Positions 8,001 to 57,422 of a stretch of DNA of 64,000 nt are shown here, one piece after another. Numbering within the stretch: position 1 is the first letter of the stretch; the number at the start of each line of letters is the position of its first letter. The stretch is from Cenococcum geophilum (lineage: Eukaryota): positions 5,270,001-5,334,000 of the forward strand of contig CP158635.1 in the NCBI GenBank assembly GCA_050273025.1, written 5' to 3'. The notes below the pieces were generated by a model. The model searched no databases, had not been told where the DNA came from, and saw only the letters and a program-made list of their open reading frames with translations. Position numbers and translations under genes: made by a program.

Positions 8001-8225
8001 GCTTATAAAGTAGACATGTATAGAGGATAGGAAGAAGATAAATAATAAGTTTTAAAGATTATTAGTTATAAGGACATTAATAATAAAATATAGTATAAGG
8101 TTAAGTAGATAGGCTATAACGAGACTACCTAGAAGCTACTAGAGAATTTAAAGAATTTTATAAAAAAGGTATAAGAGTATCGGAAGAGATTAGGTTAGGT
8201 AGCATTAATAAGAAAAGATTACTAA
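2075..8225 (+). pseudogene. Gypsy A gag and pol (PR-RT-RH-IN-chromodomain), RIP-inactivated
   Basis: ATG at 2075 (MPLKAATIT, ATG shared by copies B and I). CCHC knuckle ~3040-3080, ALIDSG protease at 4911, YLND(D)III RT motif ~5876, integrase IISDRD-like ~7350, chromodomain remnant (..YKVK*IGYNETT*KLLENL) ~8035-8160. Confidence 0.9.
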
Positions 8226-8809
8226 AGAATAAGTCACCTAAGGGGGACCTAAGAGGAGTAGCCGCTAAGCTACTTGGGTCTATTTCTTTCTTAATTCAAA
8301 GAGGATCCGCTTTTTTATTACCAAGTTTCTATAAACCCTATTTTATAAGTTTCTACTCCTTAAAATAGACCTTTTTATAAACTTTTTTAAGATAGAGTAA
8401 CTAAGCAGACGCTGTAATTTGGGCTTTTAAAGCCTTTTACTCTACATTATAAGAATGTTCTAACTTAGTAAGGGCTTAAGATAGTTTACTATCTAGCTAT
8501 ATAGTAGTAGATTAAATATAAGACCCTAAAATAGATCAGTTAAGGAACTAAACAACTATTAAGAGTAATAGGTTGCGTATATTTAGCATTAAAGACGAAG
8601 TAAACGTTATAGGATAAATAAATATTCGCTTTAGTGCACTTTAAATAAAAGGACGGTTATTATAAAGATAGACTTGCTAATATAATATAGACTAACCCCT
8701 TTTTTGAGTAATAAGAATACGGAGATAGTATAATTTTACTAAGAGATAGTATAGCAGTAATAGTATAAGTACGACGTTACGCCTATAAAGAAGAAGGAGT
8801 CTTAGGTAT
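8130..8809 (-). pseudogene. Antisense Zn(II)2Cys6-like/coiled-coil ORF of Gypsy A
   Basis: Homologous to the better-preserved copies at 9608 and 36243. Most Cys codons are converted to TAT/TAC, as expected from RIP. End approximate. Confidence 0.6.
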
Positions 8810-9073
8810 AATAAGTAATAATATTAACCAAATTAATTAGATGGATATTATACCTCTAGTAAATAACTTAGAGATATTTAGAATCTTTAAGGATAAAGAT
8901 AAAGAGGAGGGAGATAGTATTACGGACGCTTTAAGTATAATATTATAACTACTTAGAGAAGAGTTAGAAGAAGCTAGTTAGTTAATATAAGTACGGTCTA
9001 AGATAGAACCGGTAGAGCTATATAACGAGAAATAGTAACTAAGGTTATATAACGTTATATATAGTGTACGTAG

Positions 9074-24104: not shown

Positions 24105-27100
24105 TGTTAGTTTTATAAGGTGATATTACATAGCTACGGTTTATAGATAGTATAATGATTGTTATTCTTATCTCTTTATAAGGGAGGGCGAGGAGCTTAA
24201 GGCTCCTCGCCACGCTAGTGCCGCGGCGACACGTAACGGCAACTTGCCGCACGTAACGGCAACTTGCCATATATAACGGCAATATGCCTCATATAGTAAC
24301 CACTTGCCTTTATTCCCAACACTAGCAACTTTTCTTTTGTGGTTGCTATCTATATATATACCGCTTAACTAGCGGAACAAATATTAATCCTCCTTACTTA
24401 CTATTGCTATTATAATATAAGTCTCGCTGTCCTAAAATTTGCCTCTTAGCATGTGGTGCTTTCTTGCTTATAAGTTATGGGTAGGTATCTTGTTAGTAGG
24501 GCCGCTAAGGCGCTAGCGGTAAGCGAGCTAATAGTAATTTTCTATCCTAGGGATAGAAAATCCTAATTAGCTAGTTTAAGTTAGGGTCTGTAGAATGTTA
24601 TACTCCTACTCCCTTTTAACCTAACCTTTAACTTATACGCGTAGAGTATTTATGTTAATAAATATCTCTAGTGCCTTATTTAGGTTTGCCTTTATTATCG
24701 CATCTACTAGGTTATTTTAGCTATTAATCTATTAAATCTTAAAGAGTTCTTAACGCTTATAGGATTGCTAAAGTACTATAATATTGATTATAAGGCGCTT
24801 CTCCTTTGTAGTACTAAGCTTAACTAAATACTTATAGAGGGAATATAAGTTAGTGCATACGATTATAGGGATAATAGGAAGTTTAAGTTAATCTATAATT
24901 ATCTTTAAGGTAGTTCTAATTGCAATTACTATATTAACTCCGCTAACTATTCTATATATCTCTAACGCTAGAACGCTTTAAGTGATATACTTGCTCTTAG
25001 TTAAGCTCTAATAGATAAGGTTGCTATAGATTATAAAGTTATTCTCTCTAGTAGATTTGTTCGCGATAATAATTTTATATCCTAACTAGGAGCTAAAATC
25101 TTTGTTATTTATAAACGATCTATTAATAAATATAAAGAGCTTAGTAATAGGAAGATTAATAGGTATATAGAGTAGTCCCCAATCGAGATGGTTTATTTAC
25201 TAAAAAAGACGCTTATTTAGGGTAAGAATATTATCCTTAGTTAGTTTCTAGTGTTAAGCGGCAATAAAGAGATTAAATAAAGCCTTAGGTTAATAGATAG
25301 AAGTAATATAAGCTCCGTAAGTACGTTACTCTATGTATCCTTACTTTAAAGAATTAACGTTAATAACGTTAATCTTCTTGCCTTAACCCTTCTGGCGTAA
25401 GGCAATAGAATCTTTATTTAGGGAGAGGATGCATTTATTAAAGAGTAATAGTGTTATTAAATTAAGCTTTTCTTTTAGCTTTACTATAAGATTTGCCTTT
25501 ACTAGCTTATCTTCTTTAAGAGCTAAGAATTGGTCGTCTCTTAAGATAATTATATTATTAGTTTGCATGCTGATGATTCTAAATGGAGTTCCTATAGTTA
25601 TAATAAGGAAGTAGGGGTCGAATGTAGAAGTAGTTATTAAAAGCTTCTCTTTGTAGTGCTTACTATAGGTAGCCTACTAATAGGTCCCTACCTCTGTAAT
25701 TCTATATAATGGCTTAAGCACAACTATAATTGTATCTTTAGGATATTAGTAGCGAATTTACTCTAGAAGGTATGCTAATATTAAGCGCTAAAGGTACGTC
25801 TCTAATTAGGTATAGGCCTAAGTAATATCTCGCAAATAGACCGCTATTCTATTCTTTATTAGGGAGGGAGCTAGTGCAATAATAACTCACTAACTAGCTC
25901 GTTAAATTATAGGAGATTGCGTAAAAATTATCTCCTTGCTATTGTTGTTATAGCCTTAAATAATAAGCCTTAATTTCTTAAATAGGGCATTAGTAGCTTT
26001 GCCCTTAATCTTATTAACTATCCTTAACTTAAAGATGCGAACTTTATTAAACTTAGTAGGGTTATACTTCTTAAATTTAAAGACTCCTTTTATAATAAGA
26101 CTATCGATCTCCTGCTTATTGGATGCTTAGAAAGGAGCTCTAGGAGTTATAATATAACTTTCCTTTTAGAGCTGTTTTGCGAGCTTAAAGTTAGCCTTCT
26201 CCTTAGCTATTATAAAGGCCATTAATAGCTTAACTCTATTCTTAATAGCGGCAATAAATTACTCTTTAAAATTAATAAGATATTGGCGATTTTATAATCC
26301 CCTTAGGCGACCTCTACCGCGTTATAGTTGCGGCGTATCTACTATAATTATATTAGAATTATGGTTGCCTTCTAGAGCACGTTAATTATGGCTCTCCTTT
26401 AAGGCATTTTCTGTGGCATCCTATAAAGGCTCGGAACTGTTATCTTTATAATAAGGCTTAATAACAGTTAAATGGAATTAAGTGGGTTTATAAGGCATCT
26501 AAATAGTATAAGTCTAACTATCTATTATAATAAGTTAATGTAGGCCTAACTATTCTCCCTTTTTACGCTATACGCGTACCTTAGACTGGAGTGGCAGATT
26601 AAGCGTAGTTAAGGTATTTAGGCCATTTCTTATTTCTAGTGCGTTGTTGACCTAGCGTATAGCGTAGAGACGTTATACCTCCTTAGTTGCCTTATAAATA
26701 GCCTTAGCTTATTACACAACGGAGGGAGATAGTAGAGAATTATTAGTTATTTAAGGGTAGGCGCTAAAGACTAGTGACGTGGATATAAGTCTATCTAAGC
26801 CAGCGGAATTGCTAATGGCTTTAATAGCTATTTATAAGGTAAGTTCTTCGCTAGCGTCCTCTAGTTCTAAAGAGATAATCTTATATACGCGGCGTAATGG
26901 CGCGTAATATCGCTCTACTTTTTTAATACTATTATATGCCTTAATAGGGACTTCCTTAACCTTAATTGCCATTGCCTTTATCTGTTGTTAAAACTCTATA
27001 GATAAGAAGTTCTTTCCTATATTATAAACGATTTAATTAGGGGGTCTTAGGTAGATATTAATCTAGCATAATTATAGAGTATCCTATACGTTCCTAGCTA

Positions 27101-30085
27101 ATATATCCTTTAAGAAACATGCGGCTTAGAAGGAGGTTAAGAAGTTAATAACTTAGAGTACTGGCTTACCGCTAAGATATATAACGTTGACGATAATATA
27201 GAAGTTAAAGTTGTAGTCATCTTTAAGAGTAAACTTAAATCGGCTAGGGGACTTCTGGTTTATTTTGTAGTAATAGTAGTATTTTATAAGATGCTTAATT
27301 GTCTTAACCTTAACTTTATAGCCTACTCGCTAAAAAAACCCTAAGTAATTAATAAACGGATAGGTGGCTAAAATAATGGTATAGTTGGCGTAACTCTAAC
27401 TTAGTTAAGTAGCTCTAAGCAATGCTTTTTTCTGGTTATTAAAGGAGCAACTAAGGGTAACCCTATTTATGTATAACAGGCACCCGATTATCTCCCTATA
27501 TAAGTATATTCTTAAGGTTATTAAGCTTAACACCTAATTTATTTATATCCCTAATATAGAATAGAAATAGGGTATTTGCGGGAATAATATAGAAAGTAAT
27601 ATATCCTAAGGGGGTTTAGACCCTAATCGTGCTGAGAGAGATTATAGTACCTTTATTAAAACGAATTATATGTTAGCCTACCGTTAAATAGTTAATCTAA
27701 ATAGAGCTATTAAGCTACTAAAGGGCTTAAACTTAAGGTTCTCCTACTGTAAATACTCCTATGGCTTTAGTGTCTGGTATAATACTATAGAAGACGTTCG
27801 CCGAGTATTTGTTATTAAAGGAAAACATAGAACTCTCCTTTGGCTTATTAAAGATATCTAACTTTATAATAGAGTGGAGCGTAGATTGGTTATTAAGGAT
27901 AGTAATAGTTTATGTGCCATTTACCTTACTATACTTAGTAAAGTATTGGTTAGGTAAGTAGTCCTTAATTTCTATATCTATAAGGAGCTATTCGGCCTTA
28001 TTAACCTTACCCTTAAGATCTTTTACGCCTTTATATTAAACCAGGAAGCTTTAAAAGTAGGCTATAGTAACCTTATAATTTCCGACGTTTCTTATACTTT
28101 GGCGAAACTTATTATATACCTCCTTTTGTTTATTAAGAGAATGCCTAGTTAACTAGCAATTCGGTTTCTTATAAACGTAGCACTTCTTTTAGCGATTACT
28201 TTGGAATAAACCTCTATAAGGATCTCCATAATTGCCTTATAGTTGGCGTTAATTATACCCTTTACTATATTCCCTACTACGGCTACTATATATTTGGTTA
28301 GTCTAGTTATAATTATATTAGTCGGGAATACTTAGTTAGGTAGGGTTTTCGGTATAGAACTGTTAAGATTCTTATATTTATATTATAGTACCTATAATGG
28401 AGCGTAGCTCGGTATATACTCCTTTAAACGTATCTATAGGTTTATATAGCGCTAGATTGCACTTAGGAATGCTATAGTAGGCTAAGATAACCTAGTTCCT
28501 TAGGCTGTTCTTATTTTAGTAAGTTTCGGTAAGGCTATATTAGATTTTTTAGAGTTTATTAAAGAGTAGTTAAAGGCACTCTAAATGAGTCTTTATTAAG
28601 TTAGAAGCGATAACTCTTTAAAATATAGTCTCCTGTTATTCGGATATATAAAGCTAGTAATTCTTATTAATTTTAAAGTGGGCTCTAATAAGCTAAAGTA
28701 TTATATTAAAGCTATAGTTTCTACCTATAATATAGTTATAATAAAATATCGCTGTCCGTCCCTTTAATATAATAGAGAAAGCGTAATAGTACTAGTGGCC
28801 TTAAATTCTAACTTTATTATAACAGTTATAAAAGATCTATAGTTTTATTCTAAGTATATTGTACAGTTCTCCTTTAAACTTCTTCTCTTTGTCTAAATAT
28901 ACCTTTATTAGATTCGTAACTTCTTATAGTAAAGGCTCGCCGGTTAGCTGGGATAGAGGAGTTAGAGGTAGTAGAGGAGGTAGAGGAAAAGCACCTCTAG
29001 GTAAAAGGGCACCTTTTAGTGGGAGAGCACCTCTAGGTAGGGGATTAGCGTTCTAAGGGTTTTAATATAAATTAAAGTTGCCTTTTAAAGAATATAGGTT
29101 AGTTTTAGGTTTCCGTAGTTAACGTATAATCTTAGCTTCTGTCTATACTGGTTCTTCTATACTAATAATAACGGCCTAAATATTACTAGCAATTAGGTTA
29201 CTGTTCTTAGTAACGTATACCCTATTTCTATAGAGGAAGTCTTAAAAATTCTAAATAATATTAATGTTACTAAGTGCCTAGGTATCAGCAGTCCATCCTA
29301 TAAAATCCTTCCTAAAATACTCCTATAGTTATAAATCGGCGTAGTATCTATTTCGGTAGAATATAATATAGTGTAGGAGAAAGCCGTTAACCCGTTTTGC
29401 GGTATAAGTTATTATATTAAAGGCGAATTTGTCCTAATCTTTATTAATAAGTTTTGCGTATTTAGCTACCTATAGTAATAAAGAGTCTTTTTGGTTATTT
29501 AGAGTAGCTATGTTTTTAGAGGAAGGGATATATTATCGGTATAGGGATTATTGTTTAGTACGCGTTTGTGACAAGAATCTATAATTATAGGGCTTAGGAC
29601 TAGTTCTGGCCTTAAATTATAAGGACTTATAAAGCGTATTATTCTGCGTAATAGACGCAAGAATCTATAATCTGGGAAAGGCTTAGGACTAGTTCTAGCC
29701 TTTTAGATCCTTAGATTTGTAGAAGAGTTCTATTTAAGGTTTAGGACTAGTTCTAACCTTAAAAGACAGCTTCCTTTAGCACGAGTAGTACTGGTATAGT
29801 GGCTTGTCTCTTTTTAGTGGAATACCTAGCTATTCTGTGGTATAACAGTGAAGTTAACTACTAATTAGTGTTAGTTTCATAAGGTGATATTATATAGCTA
29901 TGGTTCGTAGATAGTATAATAATTATTGTTCTTATCTCTTTATAAGGGAGGGCGAGGAGCTTAAGGCTCCTCGCCACGCTAGTGCCGCGGCGATACGTGA
30001 CGGCAACTTGCCGCACGTAACGGCAACTTGCTATACGTGACGGCAATATGCCTTATATGGTGACTACTTACCTTTATTCCCAATA
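24105..30085 (-). mobile_element. Copia (GalEa-like) LTR retrotransposon D, full length, RIP-degraded
   Basis: 217-bp LTRs at 24105-24321 and 29869-30085 with internal 20-bp tandem repeats. TSD AGAAC at 24100-24104 and 30086-30090. ACTAATTAGT at 29860-29869. Knuckle KCYVYKKPNC*LTRH (~28141-28190). RT remnant MQTNNIIIL (QTDD after reversion; ORF 25383-25568). Confidence 0.93.
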
Positions 30086-31579
30086 AGAACCCTCTCTAAT
30101 ATTATATAATCTCCTTAAAGAAATAGAGTTACTTTATAGAAAGACTAAAGGAAATTATAAATCATATAAAGATATATTTATTTACTTATTAAAAGGAGAT
30201 TATCTTTTAAGAAATCGTCCTTATAGTACTTTATGTAGAGTAGCCTAGCCTTTACCTTATCCTCTAAAGCTATATATAGCATAAGAAACTAGCTATTCCA
30301 CTTTATATAATTATTAAAAGGAATTATTTTACTAGCGTATTTAATAAACTATATTATATAGTTATAAAGCTTCTCCATTGGCCCTATAATATTTTTTTTA
30401 AAATATTTTTTACCTCTTTTATACTTTTTATCTAATACTAGCTCTAATTCTTTATCCTTCTTTTTTCTCTTATCTTTTATTTTAACTAGCTATAGTGCTT
30501 ATTATATAACTTCTTCCTCTTCCTCTTCTTCTTTTTTATTCTATTCTTTATCCTCTTTATTATATAAGTTTATAACCCACTTATCCTTCTTTAAACTAAA
30601 TAGAAAGGCCTAAATAATAAGATTAATAACATGTCCTTAATAGCGAATTCTTTAATATATTATAATCTAGTTAATTTTATACTTAAGGATAAGCTATTAG
30701 CTAATTATATAATAAAGAATATTGTTTAATCTAGCATTATTACTAATAATAGCTCTAATATTTGTTTTAATGCTATACTTAATAAGTACCAGACGAAGCG
30801 CCTCCTATTAATCTATACTATTTTAGCTAAATATTATATAAAGGGCGATTAAGGGATTCTAGTATTTATTTTAGATATTAATAAAGCTAGTACAGATTTT
30901 AAGAAGAAAGGTATAATATAGAGAGGTCTAGATGTCTACGGCAAGGTAAATATTTATCTTTATAGATTAAAGTACTCTTTATATAATATCTTAACTTTTA
31001 GTAAAGTGTTTAAAAATCTAGGCTATAATCGTTAAGTAGTATATAGGGATAATTAAGGGTGCTTCTTAATTTAATACTTTTATAAAAGCATAAAACTCTA
31101 GCCATTCTATATATAATAATTAGATCTAGAAGTACTTGCTTTATAGTATTTTAATATACTATACGCTTTAGAACCTTACCCTTAAGATCTTAAACTTCTT
31201 CTTTTATTAAAAGCTTTTAATATAGTTCTAAAAGAGATCTCTCTCCCTAATATTTTACTATTATGCGCTCCTAATTCTCTACTTAGCTCTATTTAATATT
31301 ATATTTTTTAAGATAGTCTTATTGTCGGTATCACCCGGGGGGGTACTGCAATTGCAATATAAGGTAACAGGTTCTTTAATTCATTCGTGTCTATTGCAGA
31401 GGATCATAAGGATCGCGGTGCCTAAATAGGGGGCTGATAAGTCACCGTAAGGATAACTAATCAGAGACATAACCACGTAACCTCTACTTATACAGACACT
31501 AGCGACATTTATAAAAAGGAAAGAAGGTATAAAAGTATAAAGGAGAAGTATATAGGTCAACAGGTGCTCAGGGCAGTAA

Positions 31580-32497: not shown

Positions 32498-35400
32498 GGG
32501 GTATAGATGCAACAGGTGGTTGAGGTATCCTAGGGGTGGTGGCAAGTGGGCGTAATTTGAGACGATAGTTGATAGCATACGAATTAAAGGGTCCTTCGTT
32601 GTCGATATATAGCTTAATTTCTGCATCTAACCATTCCGTACGGTCGTCCTCGTAAGCAACGTCATACAGTGCTTGTGGTACTGACTTGCTCTTTTTATTA
32701 AAGACCCATACTCCATTACATCGGAGCAGTTGTTTAAGTCTTTTGATTACAGACCTATCAGCTTCCTTAAATATTTATACCTCAAAATTATCAAAGTCCT
32801 CTTGGTATGAATCCCATAGGGTTTTATCCTTAAAGTTATAGCTAGTATACTTATTAATTTTGAAGTAAATGTAATTGGTAATATCCTCTGCAGTAGTCTC
32901 GCTGGTTAGGGTGATTCCGTTGGCCCAGTTCGGACGTTGGGTTCTTATGTCGAACATAATTGGCTAGCGTAGGTCGTAGTTTAGGTCGTAGTGTAGGTCG
33001 TGGTGTAGGTAGGGGTGTAGGTAGGGGTGCTGCTGACGCTGCTGGGTGTACTGGCGCTCAGTAAAGAGGTCGTACTGGGTATTGATTTGCGTGGTGGACG
33101 CGAACCGAACGAAGCCTTGGTAGGAGTCGGTTCTTCTTAGCAAACGCGACGTGATCGACGGGCCTTAGTAGGAGCGATCGCGTGTTGTCTCTCGTGGTAG
33201 ATTTTGCGTGATGGACGCGAACCGAACGAAGCCTTGGAGGAGTCGGTTCTTTGAGTTCCTAGGGCCTATACAGGAAGGGTTCTCCTTAGCAAACACAACG
33301 TGGTCGACGGGCCTTGGTAGGAGCGATCGCGTGGTGCCTCTCTTCGTAATAACACCTGGCTGATCTGTGATATCAACTAATTAGTGTCGGTATCACCCGG
33401 GGGGGTACTGCAATTGCAATATAAGGTAATAGGTTCTTTGATTCATTCGTGTCTATTGCAGAGGATCGTAAGGATCGCGGTGCCTAAATAGGGGGCTGAT
33501 GAGTCACCGTAAGGATGACTAATCAGAGACATGACCACGTAACCTCTACTCGTACAGACACTTATAATCTAATGGTTAAGAAATAGTATCCTTTTAGGTC
33601 TTAAGGAGGATAGTATTTATAAAAGTAGCGTTTCTTTATATAAGCTTTTTCTTCCTTTATTACCATATAAGTATATTTATAAATTAAGGAGACTTATCTT
33701 AAGGTCTATATTATATAAGTAGTTAGAATTTAACCAGTATTAGCTTCGGTTTTAACGCCGCTTAAAAAAGTAAAAAGTGTATTAACTTTAAAGGAATTAT
33801 TATTATTAAAGTTTTTAGAGTAAATTTTACTAGTACTAACTATATTTATAGCGTTATATAATAGTAACAAAATATTTAGTTTTAGAGTTAAAATTCTGTG
33901 GATGCTAAGCCTTATTTAGATATTATCCAATATCCGGGCTATCCTTGGATAGGATTATTATCCGCCCGACTAGATAGGATAATTTATCCTCCGCAAGCCT
34001 ATATAGTAGCTCCACGTCATATATAGGCCACCCCACTCAAATTTCACAATTTTAAATGCTAATACTACTTATAAAAAAATTATAACTTAACCAATATAGA
34101 TCCAATCGAGCTCGCGTTTTGGGACGTAAAGCTTATAGATTCTCTAGATATTTCTACCGCCGCTAGGAACCGTAGGTGCAACGGAAGTACTTTATCTTAC
34201 CGCTAGAATAAAAAACGGGTACTAAGGAAGATGCCGCGATTAATAAACGTCTACTTACTCCCGGGTAAAAGCGTATGCTTATTAACTATATAAATAAGCT
34301 AACCCTTTATGGGCTTCCTTTTACGAATATAATAGTGCGAAATTTGGCTTCTAGCTTGTTAAAAAGATACCTAGAAGAGTACTAGGTAAGGCGTTTTATT
34401 AAACTGTATAAGAATATAATTAAATTAAGTTATCTACTACTACTTAATAAGGCACGGAAACATGCTAATTGGGCCTTATATTACAGCCTTTACTTTAAGC
34501 TTTTTGGCTAGAAAATAAAGCATTATAATATTCTACTTAAGAATATATATAATATAGATAAAAAGGACTTCCTTATACGCAAACTTAATAAAGGCCGAAG
34601 AATCTATATATAACGTATATTTAAGTTAGGAAGAATACTATTTAATATAGAATATAAATAGAGAGTGGGTTACTATAGTAGTAACTATCTATATAGATAG
34701 AACGGCACTTCCTTCTAGACTTATTTATTAGGCTTATAATAAAGCCTTATAGAAAATACTACGGTAAACTTATTAATAGGCTGGGTATATATATATAACT
34801 AGCAGAGTAAGTTGCCTAATAGATTAACTCTAATTATATTCTAAGATTTACTATAAAGAAGAGAACTATTTAGGTAGGGACTATAGTCCTTTAAATATAG
34901 GGAAGCGGTAGAGGGACACCCCCTAATTAATATGCTGACACCCCCCAATTAATATACGGACACCCCCCATTAATTAAGTTTAGTTCCTTCCTAATTAAGT
35001 TAGAATATCACGTAAATTTAAGTTATTTGCATCTACATCAGTTGCGACCATCGCGCGCCTATACCTAAAACATTACCTCGCATTTGCCCTACCTCTACTG
35101 TAACCGACTATCGGACCTTGCATATTACCCTGTTTTACCTACGTCAGCACTACCCTTATATGTCTCGGATACGTTTAATATAAGTCATGGGCTCCGGAGT
35201 TAGGGGTCTACTTTTATGTATTTATACCACTTAATTTCTATAGATTTACAATTAAGTTACTTGTTTAATTCCTATATACTGCAAAGCTTATAGTTATAAG
35301 CCCGGCCTACCTACCATACTGCATCTAATCTGTATATTTAGCGCTTACTAAGCAATTAATTGCTACCTCATTTAAGAAGTTACTACTTCTTCCACCTTTA

Positions 35401-36242
35401 TAAGTGTTTTAAGCTTCTTCTAGGTACCTCTCTTATACTTATAATTACCTTTATTTACTAAACGGACGGACGATCGAATATTAATTATATTAAATATCGA
35501 TTAAACCAAACCGAATCTAACCGTACGAACCCGACCGTACGAGCCTAACCTCCTTTAACCCAGATATACAACTATTTAACAGAGTCAACCTATCTACTAC
35601 AGTGTAATGACCTTATATGGCGTCCAAGTAAGAGCCTAGCTAGCGTAATAGCCCGAGTATAGAGCTAGAGCGAGATGCTAGAGTATAGAGCTAGAGTAAG
35701 ATACCAGAGCACTATAACGGAGCCTTATAGCAAGAACTACGGTGGACTCGTTAATGGGCTAGGTATGTAGGTATTGCAAGTAAGTTAATAACATAATAAT
35801 AACTGGTAGAGTAGTTGCCTAATAGATTAACTCTAATTGTATTCTAAGAATTACTATAAGGAAGAAACTATCTAGGTAGGGACTAAGGGTCCTTAAATAT
35901 ATAACCGTACTTCTATAAAATCCTCCTTATACGTAATATACGTGTTATACGTATTATATATAGGCGTATACCGCATATACTATATATACTGCGTATAACA
36001 TTATATAACTCGCTTACTATTTCTTATTATATGGTTTTATGGGTTCTATCCTAAACCGTACCTATATTAACTAACTAGCTTCTTCTAACTCTTCTCTAAG
36101 TAGTTATAATATTGTACTTAAAGCGTCCGTAATACTATCTCCCTCCTCTCTATCTTTATCCTTAAAGATACCTAGTATCTCTAAGTTGTTTACTAGAGGT
36201 ATAATATCTATCTAATTAATTTAGTTAATATCGTTACTTATA

Positions 36243-36950
36243 ATGCCTAAAGCCTCTTCTTTCTTATAAGTGTAACGTCGTGCCCGTACTGTTGCTGTAA
36301 TACTATTACTTAGTAAAATAATGCCATCTCTATATTCTCGTTGTTTAAAGGCGGGGTTGGTGTATATCGCGATGGCGAATCCTTTGTTTTAATAACCCTC
36401 TTTTTATTTAGAGTGCACTAAAGCAAACGTTTAATTGTCCTGCGATGTTTGTTCTACTTCTAACGCTAAATATACGCGTTCTATAACTCTTAATAGTCTC
36501 TAAGTTTCTTAAGTAATTTATTATAGGGTCTCGTGTTTAATTTGCTGCTATAAAACTTAATAGTAAACTGTCCATCGCCTTGGCGGAACTTCGTCGTTTA
36601 TGTGATGCTAAGAAGGAGGCTGCTAACGCTTAGTAACGGGCTCTTAATTCTCGTCTTACTGCGTCTACTTAGTTAATTTATCTTAAGAAAGTTCGCGAGA
36701 AGGTTTATTCTAAGGAGTGGAAACTTATAAAATAAGGTTTATAGGAACTTAGTAATAAAAAAACGGATTCCCTTTTAATAGAGAAGGAAATAACTCTAAG
36801 TAGTTCAGCAGTCGCTCTTCCTAGGTTCCCCTTAGGTGACTTATTCTTTGGTGATTCCCCTTTATTAATATTGCCTAACCTTTTCTCTTTTAATACTCCT
36901 GTACCTTTTCTATAGCGTTCTTTAGGTTCTCTAGTAGCTCCTAGGTAGTC
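36243..36950 (+). pseudogene. Antisense Zn(II)2Cys6-like/coiled-coil ORF of Gypsy I (best-preserved copy), probable intron ~36472-36526
   Basis: ATG at 36243: MPKASSFL*V*RRARTVAVILLLSKIMPSLYSRCLKAGLVYIAMANPLF**PSFYLECTKANV*LSCDV. All stops are TAA/TAG, as RIP would produce. Confidence 0.7.
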
Positions 36951-39900
36951 TTATTATAGCCTATCTACCTTACTTTATACTATATTTTATCGTCTATGTC
37001 CTTATAACTAATAATCTTTAAAACTTACTATTTGTTTTCCTCTTGTCCTCTATATATATCTACTTTATAAACCGGTAGCTTAATATTCCCGTATACTAGC
37101 TCTAGTATTATAATATACTATATAGGGTAGATCTTTATTCTAGCTAGTAGATTTAACTTAAATGTAATTAATAAAATTCTTTATATAATTTCGAAAGGTC
37201 CTAGTCTAATATAGTCTAACTTCTTGCTTAGTCGTTAACTCTTAAAATTTTTATATAGTAGCTATACTTTATCTCCCTCTTTAAGATCTGGTCCCTTAGA
37301 TCTCTTAGTATTATAGTACCTTTTTATCCTTTACTATACCACCTTAGCTATTTCCGTAAGGTCTATATAAAGATTTATTAAACTCTTTATTCTTTACTTA
37401 GCTGTGCTACTTGTCTTTTTTACTTATTATAGCGATAATAAGGTCCTTAGCTTATATCTATAATTTGCCTTAAATAGTAACGTGCCCATTCCTTCTTATG
37501 GTGTTATATTATATATAAACTATATAACTAGTAATAGTAATACCCAATTGTTCTATATATAATTAATATAATACCTTAGATACTATTCTAGTGTCTAATT
37601 TAATCTTTCTGTTTAACCGTCTGTTTATAGATAATATACGGTAAAAGTTGCTACTTAAACTCCTTACTCTGCTAAAAACACTTTCTAAAATACTACTATA
37701 AATCTTGGATCTCTATCTAATATAATCTTACTTAGTGCTCTATATCTTATAAACACTTCCTTAATATAGATTCTAGCAATATCTTCCGCTAATATTTCCT
37801 CTAAATATGCTATAAAGTATCCCTACTTTATAAGCTTATTTACTATTACTAAGATTATGTTATAATCTTATCTAATAATAGGATCTCTTAACTTTGGTAA
37901 CTTAATAATAAAGTCCTATAATATAACTTTCTATGGTCTTTCTGGTATTTTAATAGGTTGTAGCTCTCTATATAGCCTATACCTTATTAGTTTATTCCTT
38001 TAGTAATTTAGATATTCTTTTATAACTTGCCTAGCTAGTCCCTAGATTCTATTAATAATATACTCCTCTTAAAGTCTTAACACTAAGCCTGTAGCTCTGT
38101 TGTGTCCTTAAGTTGGTCCTCTATAAAATAACTTAATAAACTCCTTTATAATAGATCTTGGTATATACGTTGCTTTTTAATTTTTATACTGCTCTAAGTC
38201 TAGATTCTCTATTTATATATCTAGGATCTTTTATATCTAATTACTCTCTAGTAATTTATAGATCTCCTCTTCTTATATTACTATAATCTTTAGATAATTA
38301 TACCTAATTAATCTATCTATATCCTTTTGCAATAAAGCCCCTAATAGCTTTTTATTATTTTATAGTTTAGCCTTTCTACTTAGAGTATCCACTTGTGTAT
38401 TTTTTATACCCTTAGTATGCTAAATCTTAAAATAGTATTTTGTAAGTATCTCCGCCTATCTAACCTATCTATAATTAAGTTTTTTTGTTATTAGGAACCC
38501 TATAAGGTTTTTATAATCTGTCTTAACTATAAAGAGTTTCTTTATACCTTATAAGAACGATCTCTATTCCTTTAGTACTGTAACTATACCTAATAACTCT
38601 TTATTATAGATGTTATAGTTTAGTTCCGGTAGTATTATCTTTCGACTATAGTATGCTATTAGGTGCCATCTATCCTTATATTTCTATAGAAAGCACGCTT
38701 TTAGTGTATAGTTTGATGCATCTGTTTTAACCACTATCTCTAACTATAGCTAATAGATTTTAAGAACTGGCTCCTAGGTAAATAACTGTTTAATTTTTTT
38801 AAATAGTCCCTTTTATTTCTCTCCCTATGCCTATAGTTCTTCCTTCTTTATTAATCTTATAAATAGCTTAATGTCCTTTAACTATTAAGCTATAACCCTT
38901 TTGCAGTAGTTGCAGAACCCTAGAAATAACCTTAACTATATTATATTTTCCAGTTCTTGCCAATTCACTATAGCTTTAATCTTCTTTAGATCTATACTAA
39001 GTTAGCCTAGTTTAATAATAAATTTAATAAAATCTGTCTTCCTAGTGAAGAATTCGCATTTTTTAATTACTACTAGCATCTATTCTTCTTATAGTCTCTT
39101 TAAGACCTATTTAATATATTTTCTATATTCTTCCTTACTTATTAAGTAGATAATATTATTATTAAGGTATACTAACAAATTCATCTAAGTGCTCTCTTAA
39201 TATATTATTAATACGCTTCTAAAATATTGCTAGTACGTTTATAAGCCCGAATTGTATAACTAGTAGTTTGTATAGTCCTTCCTTTAACCTAAAGGCTGCC
39301 TTCTATTTATTACTTTCCTTAATTCTGATTTAATGGTACGCCTATCTTAAATCTATCTTTATAAAGATTTGCGCGTTATTAATCCTATCTTAGATTTTGC
39401 TAATTAAGGGTAAAGGATACCTATCCTTCCTAATAATGCTGTTTAACTATTTGTAGTTAATATATAGCCTAAGTTTTCTATTCTTCTTTAGTACGAATAG
39501 TACTAGATATCCTGCTAATAACTATAATAGTCTAATATATCCCTTTTAAAGGTTTTCTTAGATAAACTCTTTAAGTGCCTATAACTCCTTTTCTATTAAC
39601 TTATAGGTTAGGTAGAACCTTAAACTCATTCCTAGTTCTAACTCTATCTTATAGTCCCATACTATATAATCTAATAGCTTTTTACTTTCTAGTAACTATA
39701 GCCTCTTACTATACTTATGGTATCTCTTTAGTATATAACTTAATCCTTAATTAGTCTCCTTATATATTGCTCTAACTTAGTACTATACTAACTTGGTTTA
39801 TTATTATATCTTACGTCATTATATATCTCTAATATTAACTTAACCTATAACCCAATTAATCCTTAAATTATATTCCTATAACTAAGGCATTTCTAATACT

Positions 39901-40243
39901 GCCTTATTATTCCCTAATAGTAATATATTAAAAGACATCTTAACTTATCTCCCCTTAATAGTTATCTAAATTAGTCCTATTTTAAGATTAATAATGCCTC
40001 CTCTATAGGCTATTAGATCTCCTAAAATTATTACTAATAAATAAGGGTGCTCCTTTTGCCTATATGGTAGCCCTATCCTTTTAACTACTATTAGTGAGAT
40101 GTGGTTTTATATTACTTTACTATCTACTAATGCTTTAAACTGTTAATCTTGCCAATTAATTCTTAGATTTAGGTATCGCCCTTAAATTCCCTTAAGGGTC
40201 TAAGGCTCTACTACTAGCTCCCTCTGGTCCTATAGGCCTCTAC

Positions 40244-40250
40244 TTTTCCC
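40244..40250 (-). other. Putative -1 ribosomal frameshift heptamer G GGA AAA at the gag/pol junction
   Basis: In copy I the gag frame reads TTG GGA AAA, and the protease frame is -1 relative to it (frames checked in copies A and B). A and B carry the RIP variant TTA GGA AAA. Confidence 0.65.
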
Positions 40251-43200
40251 AACTATTAGCTATTTAATTCTTATATACTTAACTTACTCTTTAGCCAATA
40301 CTTAGTCCGTTTTTTATCTTTAATATACTATAAACAGGTATTCTCTAGATATTCCTACTATCGTTATCTATTTAGGCATTCTTCTATAAGGAATCTTCCT
40401 GGTTAAAGTATTAAGTCCCCTAACTCCTAAACTTCTACTAGATGCCAGCTATATATATACTTAGCATTTTTATACTATCGCTTATCTGGCGCCCAATATA
40501 TCCTTATAGGGTATTTCCAGTTTTTCTCTTTTAGATTTTTGTGCATTTTATATATATCGTCTATATATGCAATTTATAATAGCGCATAGTATACTACGTG
40601 CTTTGGGTCAACTCTTAACTTATCTTCGTCCTTAAGTTTAAACCTTTGTCGTATTAATCTGAACGTCGCAACTTTATTTATAGGTACTAAGACGCGCTTC
40701 TTACTTCTCTAGTCCTCTAATTGTTCCTCTAGATCCTTTAATATTATAATTAAGGCTCCCTTAATATAATTTATTACTTTTTCCGTAATTAGGTGGTCTT
40801 AGATAACTCTTTTATTTAACTATATATAGAAATCTTCCTACTTATTATTATGTCTTTGCCTATACTACTTTTAATATAGCTGCTAAAGTGTATACAGTTT
40901 GTCCGTAAGGAAGTATCTTCTTATTACTGCGTTATAACAGCCTTTTGTATATCATTCCTCGAACCTAGTTAGAATCCCTAGATCCTCTTTATTTTCCAGT
41001 TTAGTAAGCCACTTGGCTCTCAGTATGCCCGTTTTTAGCCTATTAGTAATTCTTTATATAGGTGCTCTGTCCCTTATATAACCTAGTATACTAGATCCTA
41101 TATCTAGTTTCTTTTCTTGCTATATAAGGATTCTTACTCTAAACTCATCTATGGTTTCTTATTATTTACGTCTTATAATTAAATCCTTAAAGTTCTCTTA
41201 CTTTTTAATCGCTATATTAACTTTTCAATCTTTAGGTTAAACACTATGTTTACCTAGTAAGTCTTCTAGGTCTATATATCTGTCTCCTAATCTAACTACT
41301 GTTTATACTGTAGATTCCCTAATCTATAGCGAAGTCCCTTACTTCTTTCTTATGGGTATCCTTATTTGTACTCCAAATCCTTAACCCCTTGGATTCTTTA
41401 ACCCTAAGCTTACTTCTTTCTTAAGCTGCGCTCTAGCCTTAGTCTAACTAGGCTTTACTAGTGTCCTTATCTCGTCTTAAGAGTTCTAGATCTCACTTGT
41501 CTTGTTTTAAAAGTCTTATACTTTTAGGAAACTTTGTCCTAAGCTTATTTATATATTACTAAACTAAGCTATTACTCTATTCTATCGGTTTTTATCCGTT
41601 ATAGGTCCTTAAGTATACCTCATCTTATCTTAAGAATCTTAGTTATCTCTTATCTCGTCTTAAGAGTCTTAAGCCTTTAGCCTTTTACCTTTATTAAGTA
41701 GTAAGCTAGTACTAGCAGTTATCTGCTTGCTTAATCGTCTCTAGATATTACTCCTTCCGTCTTATAAAGCAATAGATGCCGTATTTAACGGTATTATAAT
41801 ACCCGTTACTAAACCTTACTTTATAGCAATCTTAGTCTCTGCTTCTATTACATTATTAAGGTTTAGATACCCCCAGTTAGTTCCTTTACTGTCCTTATTG
41901 CTGTTAATTAATAAGTACTCCGACTCCATTATTATTATTACTAATCTTTATCTACACGTTGCTGTAATATCTTAATCTAGCTTATAGAGTCGATCTTATT
42001 CTTTATCTAACTCTTTAGTTCCTTTAAGTCCTTTTAACTCTAGCTCTTATAGCTAATAGCTTACACTATACTTAGCGTCTTTATAAATTTAGTATATGTT
42101 ATTATAACAAAACGCAAAACTTCTAATTAAATATTCTTTTGTTCCTTGCAGTATACTATTATCCCTCTATATATATGTATTATATACTGCTAGTCTAATT
42201 CCCTTTACTATATGGTAACTCTAACTACTTCTACAGTCCCTAATAAAATAACCCTGTTTTCCGTAATTTATATAAGCTCTATCTTTAAACCATTACTTTT
42301 ATTATAAAGTCCGCTTAAACATCTTCTACTACTAAGATCCTTGGTTTAGCCTATACTCCCTAGTCCTATAATTACTTAATCCTTAACCTCTAAGTTTCTA
42401 TAGTTTCTTACTCTATCTCTTATAGGTTTCTTTAGTACTACTTAGGTCTATTAGCTCTACGCCATACTATATTTTTTAATTTAGCTTAGGTTGTTACGTA
42501 CTCTATATTTTATACAACTATAAAACTCTATCCTAGCCCTTCTTAGCCTATTCCCTTTAGTAGATCCTATTATTAATCTTTATTGCTTAATCTATTAGTT
42601 CCCTTAAGGTATCCGCATCTTCTATTAGGATAATTACGTCCTAGACTTTAGCCTTAAGTCCCTATTTATACTATACTATAAGCGCCCTATTATTCCACTT
42701 AACTTATATTACTAGCGTTTAGAACTGCGTTATATACTTAATTACTAAAGTTTATTACGTAATATCTTAGAGTTTTCTTTCCGCTATAGTCGTTGCCTCT
42801 AGGTCTCTAAACATCTACGTAAGTCGCTCTACAAATCCGCCCTAGCTTAAGAATATAAACCGTACCTCTTAGTTTGTAGTCGTTATTCTATTTACTTATA
42901 TCTCTATAAGGTAAGGCTTAAACTACTTAAGTACCCTTCCTAATAAGAACAATCCTATATACGCTACTTAATCCATAGGTGTTAGTAGCTTAGCTCCCTC
43001 TTATAAAACCTTAAAGTGCATTTACGTAAGAAATCCTTTAAACTTTAATCTTTTAATTAATAGTAGCTTAATCTTCGCTGCTCCTATCCCATTAATCCTA
43101 TTTTTAAGTATCGCATTATTTTCCGTTAGTTAGTCAACTATCTCTTATAACTGTCCTACTATTACAGGTTATTATAAGTTAGTGTTTGCTATACTAGTAT

Positions 43201-44145
43201 CGTTACCTAATTTTAAAGTAGTTGCCGCCGTTAATAGCGTTATAGTAGCTGCTTTTAGTGGCATGTTATTTAACTTATTAAAACTATAACCGTGGTAGTA
43301 ATTATATAACGGAGCCTTATAGCAGGAACTATAGTAGACTTATTAATGGGCTAGGTATATAGGTATTATAAGTAAGTTAACAACGTAATAACAACTAGTG
43401 GAGTAGTTACCCAACAGATTAACTCTAATTATATTCTAAGAATCACTATAAGGAAGGAACTATCTAGGTAGGGACCAAGGGTCCTTAAATACACAACCGT
43501 ACTCCTATAAAATCCTCCTTGTACGTAATATACGTATTATACATATTATACGTGGGCGTACACCGCGTACACTGCGTATACTGCGTATAACATTATATGA
43601 CTCACTTACCATTCCTCGTCATATGGTTCCACGGGTTCCATCCTGGACCGTGCCTATATTAACTAACTAGCTTCTTCCAACTCTTCTCCAAGTAGTTATA
43701 ACATTGTATTTAAAGCGTCCGTAATAAGCACGGAGCTAGAGTAGAAGCTAGCTTAGATATACTAATAGTAAGAGACAAAGATACTGGGTAGATATAAGGA
43801 AGGCACTAGACCAACGGCAGCTAGAGAACTGTCGCTAAAACTAGACAACCGTTTAAACGACCAGCTAGCGAACACCAGAGCCTTAATATAGGCCTATTAC
43901 CAAATCAAATTAAGGCCTCCTATAGAGACACTAACACTATAACCAGTTGCAGCTATTACGCTATAGACGCCCTTCCGAAACGCTAGCCTATATTAGCACC
44001 AGCCTTATCGGCACCAGTTACGACGACCATAACGTTACCAAATTTAACGTCTTAACGTTACTAGAGTTACCAAGTAACTACCTTAAGATCTACCTTAATT
44101 ACAGATTAAATGACTACCTCAAATGCAGATTAAATTACTATACCT

Positions 44146-44272: not shown

Positions 44273-44608
44273 AGCTCTATATCTAGAGATATAAAGCTAA
44301 GGAGATATATTCTAAAACGACCCTTCTTTTTTTACTCCTATTTAATACAGTTTCTACCTTTATTTTTCTTTCTATAGCTTTAACTACACCGTCAAATCTA
44401 GGGGGATGTGTAACCGACTACCGGACCTTATATATTACCCTATTTCACCTGCGTTAGTACTACCCTCATATGTCTTGGATACGTTTGATATAAGTCATAG
44501 GCTCCGGAGTTAGGGGTCTACTTTTATATATTTATACCACTTGATTTCCATAGATTTACAATCAAGTTGCTTGTTTAATTCCCATACACTGCAAAGCTTA
44601 CATCTACC

Positions 44609-54473: not shown

Positions 54474-57422
54474 CTACACACCAGAGTCATGGACCTCGAT
54501 GCCGTTGGCTGTGGCATAGTCGTCCCAGGTAGAGCATGTGTTCTGAAGGGCACACGAATCGGCGACGGTACCAAGGATCTTGGACTTCTGCTCCACGATT
54601 TGCAGAGCGAAACCCATGGACGTATGCCAACCGACGTGGCAATGCATCAACCAGACACCCGGGTTGTCCGTCAGGAAAGCAAGCACAATGAAACCGGCTG
54701 CGGGAAGGAGTGCTGTATCACGGCGAGCAGGATTCTGCAGATTCAACGCAACGGTAGAATCGTAGGAACCAGCACCCGCAGCGAGGATATTGAAATCGTG
54801 ACCGTGAAGATGGATGGGATGTGGGACAGGAATGCCACTTTCGACAATGATGTAGACCCATTGTTTAGCTTCAGGTATATCAAGTATGAGGTTACCACTG
54901 TACGTTGGGGCAGTACCATTCTCAACGAGATGGAACAAAGTTGGATCACCATATTGAGACTCGAATGTAGTTCCCGACAGATACCACTTGAAGAGATTGG
55001 CGCTGTTTGGCGCAACAGTAACACCATAAGTGAACTCAGTGTCATCGTCGGCAGCATTGAGAGCAACAATAGGAACCAAGCTCTCAATGGGCTCATCGAC
55101 ACATCCACCAGTGTAGTTGTATCCAGTAGTTGTTGGGGTAGCTCCTGGACTACCAACGTAGCGAACAATACCCTTGATATCAAGAGCCTGGATGGTAGCA
55201 GCACAGGCATTCTGGTTATCAGAACGCATCCAGTAGTCTCCAATTGGCTGATCAGCTTTGACAATGACATTATAACGTTGACCTGAGCTCGTTAATAAAG
55301 ATTAATTTACTTTCATTAAATGATGCTTACCAATGTTAATGTTAAGAATCTTAGTCTCATAAGGAGTGATCGGGACAAAATCATTAGAAATGACAGTCAT
55401 ACTGTGTCCATCGATGTAGAACTTGTAAGTAGATTGGATAGCGGTGTTAACAATACGCAACAGATATGATTGGCCAGATATGAACTGAGTGTCGAGCACG
55501 AAGCGAGAACCAGTCGAGCTGGTACCATTGCCCCATGTATTTTGACCGTTAATAAGACCGTTGTCCATCTTACGAGGGCCACCGGCGACGGCATCTTGCG
55601 CGGCATCGTACATAGAGTCAACCGTAGCATGAGACCAATCCTGAAGTACGATCATACCAGCGTCAACATCATACGATTGACTGGTAGGACCGTGAATGAT
55701 CATGGGTCCCTGAACACCCATCCAAGCTTGAATGGCGAAATGGGAATGGTACCAGGAAGTTCCGTAGTTGGTGGCAACCCACGTATAGGTCATAGACTCT
55801 CCAGGCGCTATAGGGCACTGAGTGATTGACGGAACACCATCATATTCACTGGTAAGATTCTGGCGAATACCGTGGAAATGGATGCTGGTACCGTTATTTG
55901 TAAGCTTGTTGTTGACAGTCACAACAATAGTGTCACCCCAGTTAGCTTCGATGGCCGGACCAGGCATTTGGCCGTTGACAAGAAGTGCCACCCTCTCAAT
56001 ACCATCAGGCGAAATCGTAGTATTCGTGATATCGAAGGTATAGGTAACAGTTTTGCAAGTCTTGGGGACATTTTCATAGTAATCGGTATTGATATCAAAA
56101 CCACAGAAATTGTTGGGATCAACTCCAGGTTGGCCTTCACAAGGGATGCACAGGGCAGTAGATGTTGGCTTAGTTGTGCAAGAGAATACGCTTGTCGAGT
56201 TGGACGATGTAGTTGTGGTTGCGTTAACGGATGTAGTGCTCACAGAAGTAAAATTCGCACTGGATGTAATTGTTGACGACGAGGCGGATGTGGTCAAATT
56301 CGCACTGGATGTGATTGAGACGGAAGATGTACTTTCAGCACTTGAGCTAGCAGTGGAAGAGGCCGACGTAATGGTAGCAGACACGCTGGCAGATGAGCTG
56401 ACCGAGGTGCTGGTTAAAGATACTGAAGAACTCGAAACGCTGGCAGATGAGCTAACCGAGATGCTAGTTAGAGATACTGAGGAACTCGAAGCACTAGCAG
56501 AGCCGGAAACCTTGGTCGTCGTGCTGGAGACGGTACTCGAGGCTGTCGTGCAATTTGCGATGAGTATTGCGCCATGCACATTAGATACGGAGACAGCCTT
56601 TCCAACTGATTTCTTCAAGTAGCAGGGACCCTGTGGAGTACCTGCGACCCAAGAGACATCAACGCATCCAGGAGTCGCCGCACAGGAAGCCGCGCAAGCT
56701 TCAACGTTTGGAACGTAGAAGCCTCCACCGGGGAGATCACCACCAGCGTGGTCAGTAGAGCACTCAATGAGAAATGCTGCACCACACGAACTAGTATAGA
56801 CGGTGTTGTTGATTGAAGGACAAGTGGTTGATGTTGGGGTTGGTTGCGCATATGATGTGGCTGTGCCAGTCGTGACTGGGTAAACCCTGATAGCACCCCA
56901 AACATTACCGGCGGACACTGGTGAACCGACTTTCGATTTCAAATAACACGGGCCTTGGGGACTTCCTGGTACCCAGGAAACATCAACACATCCAGTTCTC
57001 GCTTCGCAGGCGGCAATACAGCCAGCTAAACCAGAGGTATAGACTGGATTACCGGACATATCTCCATTAACATGATCGAGAAAACACTCGACTTGGTAGG
57101 CATCTCCGCTTGTCGCCGTGAAAATTGTTCCGTTTGAAGATGGACATGAGAGAGCAGTTGCGGTAGCCGTTGGCGAGGCAGTAGAGCTGGATACGCCACG
57201 CTTTTGTTTGCTATCGCACCATCCGTTATCTTCCTGACAACCTGAACCGCAGTGCGCTTTCGTAGAACCGCAGGCGCCGCTGGAGCTGCAGCAGTCGCCA
57301 AATATCGAACCCCAGCACGACACTCCGTTGCCGCACTTTCCATCTTTGCTTGTGTCTTTTCCGGCAATTGCTGGCAGAGCGCCAGCAAGGCACAATGCGA
57401 GAGACCAGTTGACGACCCTCAT
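54474..57422 (-). CDS. Secreted modular laccase/multicopper oxidase (AA1), 966 aa; exons 57422-55331 and 55282-54474
   Basis: All four copper signatures are present: HFHG...DGVPSITQCPI, WYHSH, HPIHLHGH and HCHVGWHTSMGF (axial Phe). C-terminal DSGV is typical of ascomycete laccases. A 48-bp intron GTAAGC...CAG restores IGQRY. N-terminal signal peptide, 8-Cys hevein-like domain, two Cys-rich repeats and a Ser/Thr linker. Confidence 0.95.

Follow-up and report, generated by a model that had tools for sequence, protein, structure and literature searches.

Within a 64,000-nucleotide (nt) stretch of the Cenococcum geophilum genome (assembly GCA_050273025.1, contig CP158635.1, positions 5,270,001 to 5,334,000; hereafter the window, whose own numbering is used below), repeat analysis identified one long terminal repeat (LTR) retrotransposon present in three copies, which we call A, B, and I. 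Each copy holds, in the interval from the pol end to the 3' LTR, one homologous open reading frame (ORF) antisense to pol, in an identical register. We conclude that this stretch, which in copy I occupies 36243–36915 on the plus strand, is probably a copy, killed by repeat-induced point mutation (RIP), of an antisense, intron-containing accessory gene of one ascomycete lineage of Ty3/Gypsy chromodomain elements. The evidence for this reading comes from unmutated relatives of the frame, from an intron that changes in length while keeping its phase, and from a constraint on the third base of cysteine codons that is explained on one strand.

The antisense frame in the window and its relatives

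The predicted gene is laid out as follows in the three copies:

36243–36471, plus strand: copy I exon 1, with the start ATG, a hydrophobic N-terminal part, and a six-cysteine module, its last base being the T of a split Trp codon; damaged by RIP
36472–36526, plus strand: copy I putative intron, 55 nt, now AT...TAG, the donor having changed from GT to AT
36527–36915, plus strand: copy I exon 2, with the GG of the Trp codon, a coiled-coil-type helix, an acidic stretch, and a hydrophobic tail; stop at 36913–36915
9608–10259, plus strand: copy B antisense gene (exon 1 9608–9836, intron 9837–9891, exon 2 9892–10259)
8809–8158, minus strand: copy A antisense gene (exon 1 8809–8581, intron 8580–8526, exon 2 8525–8158)

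A preliminary description of this DNA, made from its letters alone, had reported that all three copies have a homologous antisense frame between pol and the 3' LTR, and both the coordinates and a DNA alignment of 910 columns uphold it. Exon 1 aligns without indels, and exon 2 contains a single in-frame indel of 21 nt (36620–36640). This segment, equal to seven codons, or one heptad of the coiled coil, occurs in copy I and in relatives like the unmutated ORF P0118 (see below) and is missing from A and B; conceptual translation yields 205 residues for I and 198 for both B and A. The gene has a conserved ATG that stands about 100 nt in from the LTR edge (109 nt in copy I), and exon 2 of copy I carries the motif LKKVREKV.SKEWKL and the tail ...NTPVPFL. 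Codon alignment likewise agrees with the six-cysteine pattern that had been proposed: the spacing is C-x2-C-x6-C-x13-C-x2-C-x8-C, at least one copy retains TGY at each of codons 1, 2, 4, 5, and 6, and every copy has TAT at the third.

RIP is a fungal process of C-to-T mutation induced by repeats, and the replacement of Cys by Tyr (TGY to TAY) is among its outcomes. Differences among the three copies are mostly transitions, with 230 C/T or G/A columns against 60 others, an excess that we read as the signature of RIP. The start codon is kept in copy I only, being ATA in B and A, and in-frame stops number 11 in I, 9 in B, and 13 in A. Because of these stops, the Cys-to-Tyr changes, and the loss of the GT donor to AT, all three window copies of the gene appear dead and non-functional, with damage of the kind that RIP would leave.

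An exon 1 profile built from the three translations matched 159 protein clusters (50% identity) among 1.84 billion representatives at E ≤ 0.001, and an exon 2 profile matched 21 homologous ORFs, nearly all ending in ...NTPIPFL. Most ORFs found by the profiles are calls on DNA mutated in the manner of the window copies. In an alignment of 152 sequences, the six cysteine columns hold C or Y in 145/149, 147/149, 149/150, 126/133, 127/133, and 117/122 sequences, respectively. Unmutated ORFs, full or partial, are also among the relatives (P0174, P0175, P0176, P0177, P0180, and P0118). P0174 encodes 239 residues (an ORF of 717 nt on a contig of 1423 nt), and P0176, with 152 residues and the beginning MPPKVSK..., is close to the window's own element family. 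The possibility that the frame is a chance ORF was rejected on the basis of the exon 1 matches.

A scan of metagenome contigs yielded four further loci (L001–L004), every one of which contains a related antisense gene. L001 is an unmutated element with a guanine-plus-cytosine (GC) content of 48%, in which the ORF has all six cysteines and is open from its ATG, with two stops just upstream. The third cysteine codon is TGT or TGC in L001–L004, as expected from the earlier suggestion that TAT in the window represents a TGT lost to RIP, and indels among members of the family are in frame. The search for intact relatives, which had been put forward as a check, thus succeeded with P0174, P0176, P0118, and L001, among others, and we take the antisense frame to be a real accessory gene and not an artefact. 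Such a gene goes unseen by gene callers in RIP-rich genomes; where the genome is unmutated, it is called piecemeal as a "hypothetical protein," as in the case of P0180.

Across L001:1-5413, the antisense-gene region is followed by a polypurine tract, an LTR, and then directly by gag and protease, on the strand of pol (minus-strand gag/protease ORFs at 1573–4575 and 2–1642). Either L001 represents a tandem pair of elements with one LTR in common, or its assembly has collapsed across the LTR.

The intron, a proposed antisense transcript, and the coding strand

The segment that separates the two exons had been described as about 55 bp long, ending in TAG, and splitting a Trp codon (T|GG). It measures 55 nt in all three window copies, and the relatives allow its other features to be read. 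At the donor position, the window copies, L002, and L004 have AT, a RIP-type change. The less mutated relatives supply the GT donor that had been postulated: L003 has GTGTAT, and L001 has T|GTGCGT after ...SDAE, with a branch sequence CTGAC 14 nt before the end of the contig. In L003, the intron extends over 1762–1894 of the locus and is 133 nt long (GT...CTAAT...TAG). Like the 55-nt version, it has a length of 1 modulo 3, and the T|GG junction and phase are the same. Since length varies while phase, junction, and strand-specific signals stay, we interpret the segment as a phase-1 intron that splits a Trp codon. Several ORF calls (P0156, P0159, and P0145) read the extra intron piece of the L003 lineage (78 nt) as ...GGNTW...

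The expectation that the frame would resume once the segment is removed is realized in unmutated ORFs. P0174, P0176, and P0118 are intronless, with the frame continuous across the junction, which in P0174 and P0176 reads ...SDAEW|SRV(V/Q)..., and P0180 and P0177 are genomic sequences whose frame reads through the 3' portion of the intron and on into exon 2. P0174 is further distinguished by the absence of a second GT...AG segment, of 58 nt (L001:5093–5150, branch CTGAT), which holds the first ATG, and it matches L001 upstream into the LTR. This one contig suggests that the L001 lineage has a second, 5' intron with the donor AG|GTRTRR, whose removal would take out the first ATG and thereby provide for alternative start codons; in the window's own family this intron is a candidate. 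The AG|GTRTRR motif itself stands upstream of the ATG in copy I (36209–36214, plus strand) and is kept in all seven DNA sequences (A, B, I, and L001–L004). P0174 thus resembles an antisense RNA with its start in the 3' LTR and with two introns removed, and the intronless ORFs as a group would imply spliced antisense RNA.

Four points decide that the antisense strand is the coding strand. An intron is specific to a strand, and the removal of 55 or 133 nt, or a change from one length to the other, would break the sense frame. At the six cysteine columns of the seven DNA sequences, the third base is a pyrimidine in 42 of 42 codons, which read T-[G/A]-[T/C]. RIP leaves this base class unchanged. 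On the sense frame, the same base is a wobble position, and most of the codons concerned are four-fold degenerate in L001, so that only antisense coding for Cys, as opposed to Trp or stop, explains the constraint. In L001, the sense frame continues without a stop across the polypurine tract and into the LTR, and its openness therefore marks no gene boundary. Finally, the three window copies have one common stop, at 36877–36875 in copy I, the first such stop after the chromodomain-like part of pol and right after its end. We attribute the sense openness in L001 to the composition of the antisense protein, which has no Tyr and few His or Gln residues, and not to a gene.

We weighed these points against the idea that the sense strand codes for a C-terminal extension of pol, shared wobble positions giving rise to the antisense frame as a by-product. 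In a deRIPed consensus of the three copies over an 883-nt region that includes the pol end, the sense pol frame does have the fewest stops (11, as compared with 17–22 in the plus frames), and in L001 it is open over 164 codons. An extension of pol would, however, have to cross the common stop, run on through the polypurine tract into the LTR, tolerate a strand-specific GT...AG intron of 55 or 133 nt, neither a multiple of three, and account for the third-base constraint at the Cys codons; its read-through, moreover, has no match in Pfam. We regard a sense-strand origin as scarcely credible. A different proposal makes the ORF incidental: the antisense RNA itself would matter, either by giving rise to double-stranded or small interfering RNA or by interfering with transcription of the element. 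Passages of PMC7264820 discuss regulatory antisense transcripts of LTR elements, and the apparent transcript P0174, on a contig of 1423 nt with a 717-nt ORF, leads from the LTR into pol in antisense. An RNA-only function sits poorly with six invariant cysteines constrained to a third-base pyrimidine, with a conserved start and stop, with an intron phase kept at two intron lengths, and with indels that occur only in multiples of three, one of them of seven codons. These features point to selection on a protein, and we consider an RNA-only role very unlikely.

Several observations weigh against the accessory gene as we propose it. Transversions between the window frame and its four relatives fall mainly on codon position 3 of exon 1 (15, 14, 17, and 11 there; 4 to 9 at positions 1 and 2), but the exon 1 frame has its wobble position in common with the pol frame, so that this periodicity alone picks no strand. 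Exon 2 transversions by codon position are ambiguous (3/12/14 and 13/14/21), and both sense frames are open over 277 nt of L001. The RNA derivation of the intronless contigs is read from their absent GT...AG segments. One raw RNA-seq run and three contig sets, when mapped, gave no transcript of the window copy and zero splice joints, although these runs had only small parts of the stretch in common with it, are silent on the expression of a live copy, and would be expected to give a null result for a copy dead from RIP. Read depth is 0 over 36270–36383 and does not exceed 1.8 in the intron or elsewhere in exon 1, and the pieces that map come from related copies with 90–99% likeness, mostly in the LTR. 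The earlier proposal of antisense transcription from the 3' LTR therefore stands in part: P0174, apparently twice spliced and reaching the LTR, fits it, and the window copy itself contributes no reads or joints. A last adverse point concerns the encoded protein, whose cysteine module is weakly basic and includes the hydrophobic stretch LVCVAIAAP. Zn2Cys6 DNA-binding domains are not known to contain such a stretch.

Protein architecture and the identity of the cysteine module

Intact relatives specify a protein of about 200–215 residues with six invariant cysteines spaced 2-6-13-2-8. From the N to the C terminus, they present a hydrophobic helix (..ILSLGEIM), the cysteine module, the Trp of the splice junction, a helix of about 100 residues that carries an invariant basic motif (LEKVREKVRSKE), then an acidic stretch, and finally a hydrophobic tail (SPLGDLFF...LPN..S.NTP.PF(P/L)). 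Roughly the final 13 codons face the end of pol on the other strand and may owe their conservation to pol. AlphaFold2 predicts a helix at residues 98–200 of P0174 with a predicted local distance difference test (pLDDT) score above 95, and in two models the cysteine module is unreliable, at a pLDDT of 48–53. Prediction of a complex of two P0174 copies (residues 50–205) with four zinc ions gave no answer (score 0.13, against a mark of 0.32).

The distribution of the six cysteines over two C-x2-C-x6-8-C halves would make a binuclear cluster the simplest chemistry. The classical Zn2Cys6 range is C-x2-C-x6-C-x5-12-C-x2-C-x6-8-C, and the middle loop of 13 residues is one residue beyond it. We find true membership in the Zn2Cys6 family doubtful, and we rate zinc binding of some kind as much more probable than such membership.

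The preliminary description had gone further, proposing a DNA-binding regulator with a Gal4-type Zn(II)2Cys6 pattern that serves self-regulation, anti-silencing, or targeting. In full, this reading is of a true member of the Gal4-type family that binds DNA as a coiled-coil dimer and regulates the element through LTR activation, anti-silencing, or targeting. Its appeal is evident in the order of parts, with six invariant cysteines at 2-6-13-2-8 followed by a linker and a long helix, which is the layout of Gal4. Among Pfam families, moreover, only Zn_clus (PF00172) is matched by several members, namely 5 of 41 at E ≤ 10, with a best E of 0.073. The strongest Zn_clus score, 13.6 bits for P0176 (E = 0.075), falls short of the gathering score of 21 bits, as does every other; on the read-through translations of the RIP-damaged window copies at the antisense gene, Pfam gave no match on either strand. 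Searches against sequences in the PDB present a similar picture. PPR1 is the top match of P0176 (1pyi_A, E = 0.56) and recurs at E = 1.3 in single-sequence searches, whereas two family profile searches returned 0 matches at E ≤ 10 and the single-sequence search with P0118 returned none. The best Zn_clus and PPR1 alignments, moreover, set the first cysteine triad on the second half of the pattern, and C2H2 fingers match equally well or better by way of a ...G..P..C.EC.K... knuckle, placing ahead of or instead of PPR1 for the L001 N-terminal part and for P0178. In the Atlas, the nearest entries are Ascomycota clusters of 161–204 residues with scores of 0.90–0.91 (0.77–0.84 for the N-terminal part alone); one cluster, at 0.90, bears the automatic name "Zn(2)-C6 fungal-type domain-containing protein," which we treat as a lead only. 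Taken with the pLDDT of about 50 over the module in both models, the long middle loop, and the scarcity of basic residues, these results do not bear out membership in the Gal4-type family, and we judge the full proposal of a Gal4-type regulator unlikely.

The module could instead be another zinc-binding or disulfide module, resembling DUF3716 (PF12511), a zinc ribbon, or a treble clef, within a coiled-coil adaptor whose partner would be a protein or an RNA (Gag, integrase, genomic RNA, or host silencing factors) rather than DNA. Low charge, the hydrophobic loop, and a generic likeness to zinc knuckles would suit such an adaptor. P0178 covers nearly the whole DUF3716 profile (3–59 of 59; E = 0.018, 15.4 bits), and a DUF3716 cluster ranks fourth in the Atlas for the N-terminal part. 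DUF3716 proteins are, according to passages of PMC8232023, carried by the IS3EU DNA transposon in Zymoseptoria. The P0178 score is nevertheless under the DUF3716 cut-off of 22 bits and is the single match in three Pfam scans (1/7, 0/12, and 0/41 proteins), the Atlas score, 0.77, is no better than chance according to the calibration of that tool, and no partner of the protein is known. We rate this reading as tentative, short of probable.

Under the accessory-gene reading, the mRNA would start in or near the 3' LTR and run antisense, and the intron would survive retrotransposition by virtue of the genomic RNA being the other strand. The six cysteines would coordinate zinc, in the simplest case two ions in the manner of a binuclear Zn2Cys6 cluster, and the long helix would make the protein an oligomer. 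The product may have a nuclear role in expression, silencing, or integration of its own element, which would parallel brtn, the plant aORF-3R genes, and, by analogy, HBZ, all compared below. A bolder version can be formulated, in which a widespread ascomycete chromovirus lineage brings along its own miniature Gal4-like transcription factor, made from a twice-spliced antisense mRNA that starts in the 3' LTR. Whether the 5' intron is used or skipped would decide between a long and a short protein. Bound to the element's LTR or to chromatin close by, the factor would activate the element, oppose heterochromatin or RIP-linked silencing, or direct integration, as a fungal counterpart of HBZ-like retroviral antisense regulators. 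We consider this version, as a whole, improbable.

To our knowledge, accessory genes of LTR retrotransposons are few, and none that is antisense has a known function. Here, a large family conserved at the protein level (159 clusters) comes with a domain layout that suggests testable activities, namely zinc binding, oligomerization, and perhaps DNA binding. The family offers a tractable entry into possible self-regulation or chromatin regulation by a retrotransposon from its opposite strand. The most useful additions of the present analysis are the strand test, the two intron lengths with one phase, and the hint of a second intron whose removal takes away a start codon.

Host element, genomic setting, and known systems

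For the window itself the finding is an ordinary one: three dead copies within an AT-rich repeat block. The block is of the RIP type, with 27–35% GC, and gives way to a GC-rich gene region from about 50 kb. The host element, as resolved by repeat analysis, is laid out as follows:

~1609–9077, plus strand: copy A, LTR element
9074–17102, minus strand: copy B, LTR element, with LTRs at 9074–9497 and 16679–17102
35713–43726, minus strand: copy I, LTR element
35713–36134, minus strand: 3' LTR of copy I, 422 nt, 87% identity to the 5' LTR at 43305–43726
~36135–36165: polypurine tract of copy I, just inside the element from the 3' LTR
36875–43304, minus strand: gag-pol region of copy I, with reverse transcriptase, RNase H, integrase SH3, and a chromodomain-like end

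In the minus-strand read-through of copy I, Pfam places RVT_1 (3.1e-10) and RT_RNaseH (1.9e-20) over their cut-offs and SH3_Tf2-1, the Tf2-1-type integrase SH3, below threshold at 19.2 bits. The end of pol looks chromodomain-like by eye (...KVRWIGYNKTTW...NLKNAIEKVQEY...); the Pfam Chromo family reaches E = 0.43 at best at the pol end, and that in copy B alone of the three RIP-damaged copies. The host is therefore likely a chromoviral Ty3/Gypsy element, with a chromodomain that the damaged copies do not formally establish. The overlap between the antisense gene and the chromodomain end, which had also been claimed, holds insofar as the antisense stop at 36913–36915 faces the last helix of the chromodomain-like pol end; the chromodomain part of that claim is a matter of inspection by eye. 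If the stop at 36877–36875 is the original one, pol and the antisense gene would overlap by about 41 nt.

Copies A and B stand head to head, and the 3' LTR of A is truncated, to some 155 nt, precisely where the inverted 3' LTR of B begins (9074; window 8920–9497). Copy I is flanked by a 192-nt direct repeat of 90% identity (35099–35290 and 44409–44600, spaced 9310 nt apart) and may be nested inside another repeat element. Two other pairs of direct repeats, at 24105–24319 and 29869–30083 (91% identity, 5764 nt apart) and at 31319–31500 and 33381–33562 (95% identity, 2062 nt apart), may be LTR pairs of other elements. The GC-rich part contains a multicopper oxidase gene (54474–57491, minus strand) with Cu-oxidase_3, Cu-oxidase, and Cu-oxidase_2 domains and with PAN domains upstream in frame. 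Among 14 window ORFs scanned, none was a Zn2Cys6 gene that could serve as a comparison.

With regard to protein families, the window gene resembles the Gal4/PPR1 type (PF00172) in its six cysteines in two C-x2-C-x6-8-C halves, its linker and coiled-coil-type helix, its occurrence in ascomycetes, and its recurrent weak matches. It differs from that type in scoring under every threshold, in its hydrophobic 13-residue loop and weakly basic character, in being encoded by a retrotransposon, and in the lack of a confident fold. For its layout, an analogy is offered by HBZ of the human retrovirus HTLV-1 (human T-cell leukemia virus type 1), a coiled-coil regulator that is antisense, spliced, and driven by the 3' LTR. 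HBZ is a bZIP protein with no Cys module. Both are antisense genes at the 3' end, with a transcript that comes, apparently in the case of the window family, from the 3' LTR, with spliced forms that have different starts, and with a coiled-coil part; there is no homology, and the analogy is one of layout only. Passages of PMC7264820 note that the HTLV 3' LTR has an antisense promoter.

Closer in position are antisense genes of other LTR retrotransposons. The preliminary description had started from the premise that canonical Gypsy elements encode gag and pol only, which overlooks antisense extra ORFs, including brtn in Boty-like chromoviruses, as passages of PMC7264820 make plain. The same passages describe aORF-3R genes in plants, namely maize Grande (gene23), rice RIRE2, Silene Retand, and Phaseolus PvRetro13, and report antisense transcription of their own for Grande and Retand and a nuclear product for Grande. 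The window gene equals these in slot and orientation: the LTR of copy I ends at 36134, the gene lies at 36243–36915 on the plus strand, and pol is on the minus strand, with A and B alike. As plant aORF-3R genes are described as conserved within their families, so the window gene is found in 3/3 window copies, 4/4 related loci, and 159 protein clusters. The difference is that the aORF-3R genes belong to plant elements, including Retand, described as a non-chromovirus lineage (PMC11963269); no sequence similarity is claimed here, and the passages report no Cys6 module.

The nearest precedent is brtn, an antisense extra gene between pol and the 3' LTR in Boty-like chromoviruses of Botrytis and Sclerotinia, which is treated in passages of PMC7264820, PMC8365987, PMC4227169, and PMC5987419. 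The passages on Boty-like brtn also mention a Monilinia transcript that matches both a truncated Pol and BRTN, and such a transcript would fit an overlap with the pol end like that of the window gene. Our literature search, with most subscription journals outside its coverage, found no description of a Cys6 coiled-coil antisense gene in LTR retrotransposons. To judge from those passages, the likeness to brtn extends to the host, a chromodomain Ty3/Gypsy element of fungi, to the antisense position between pol and the 3' LTR, and to presence across the copies of a family. The two were compared by position and description; brtn belongs to Boty-like elements, and members of the window family were found in metagenome contigs and in ascomycete genomes affected by RIP. 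With brtn, a gene of this orientation in the pol–3' LTR slot of fungal chromoviruses is already in print, and the cysteine module, the coiled coil, and the intron are described here for the window family.

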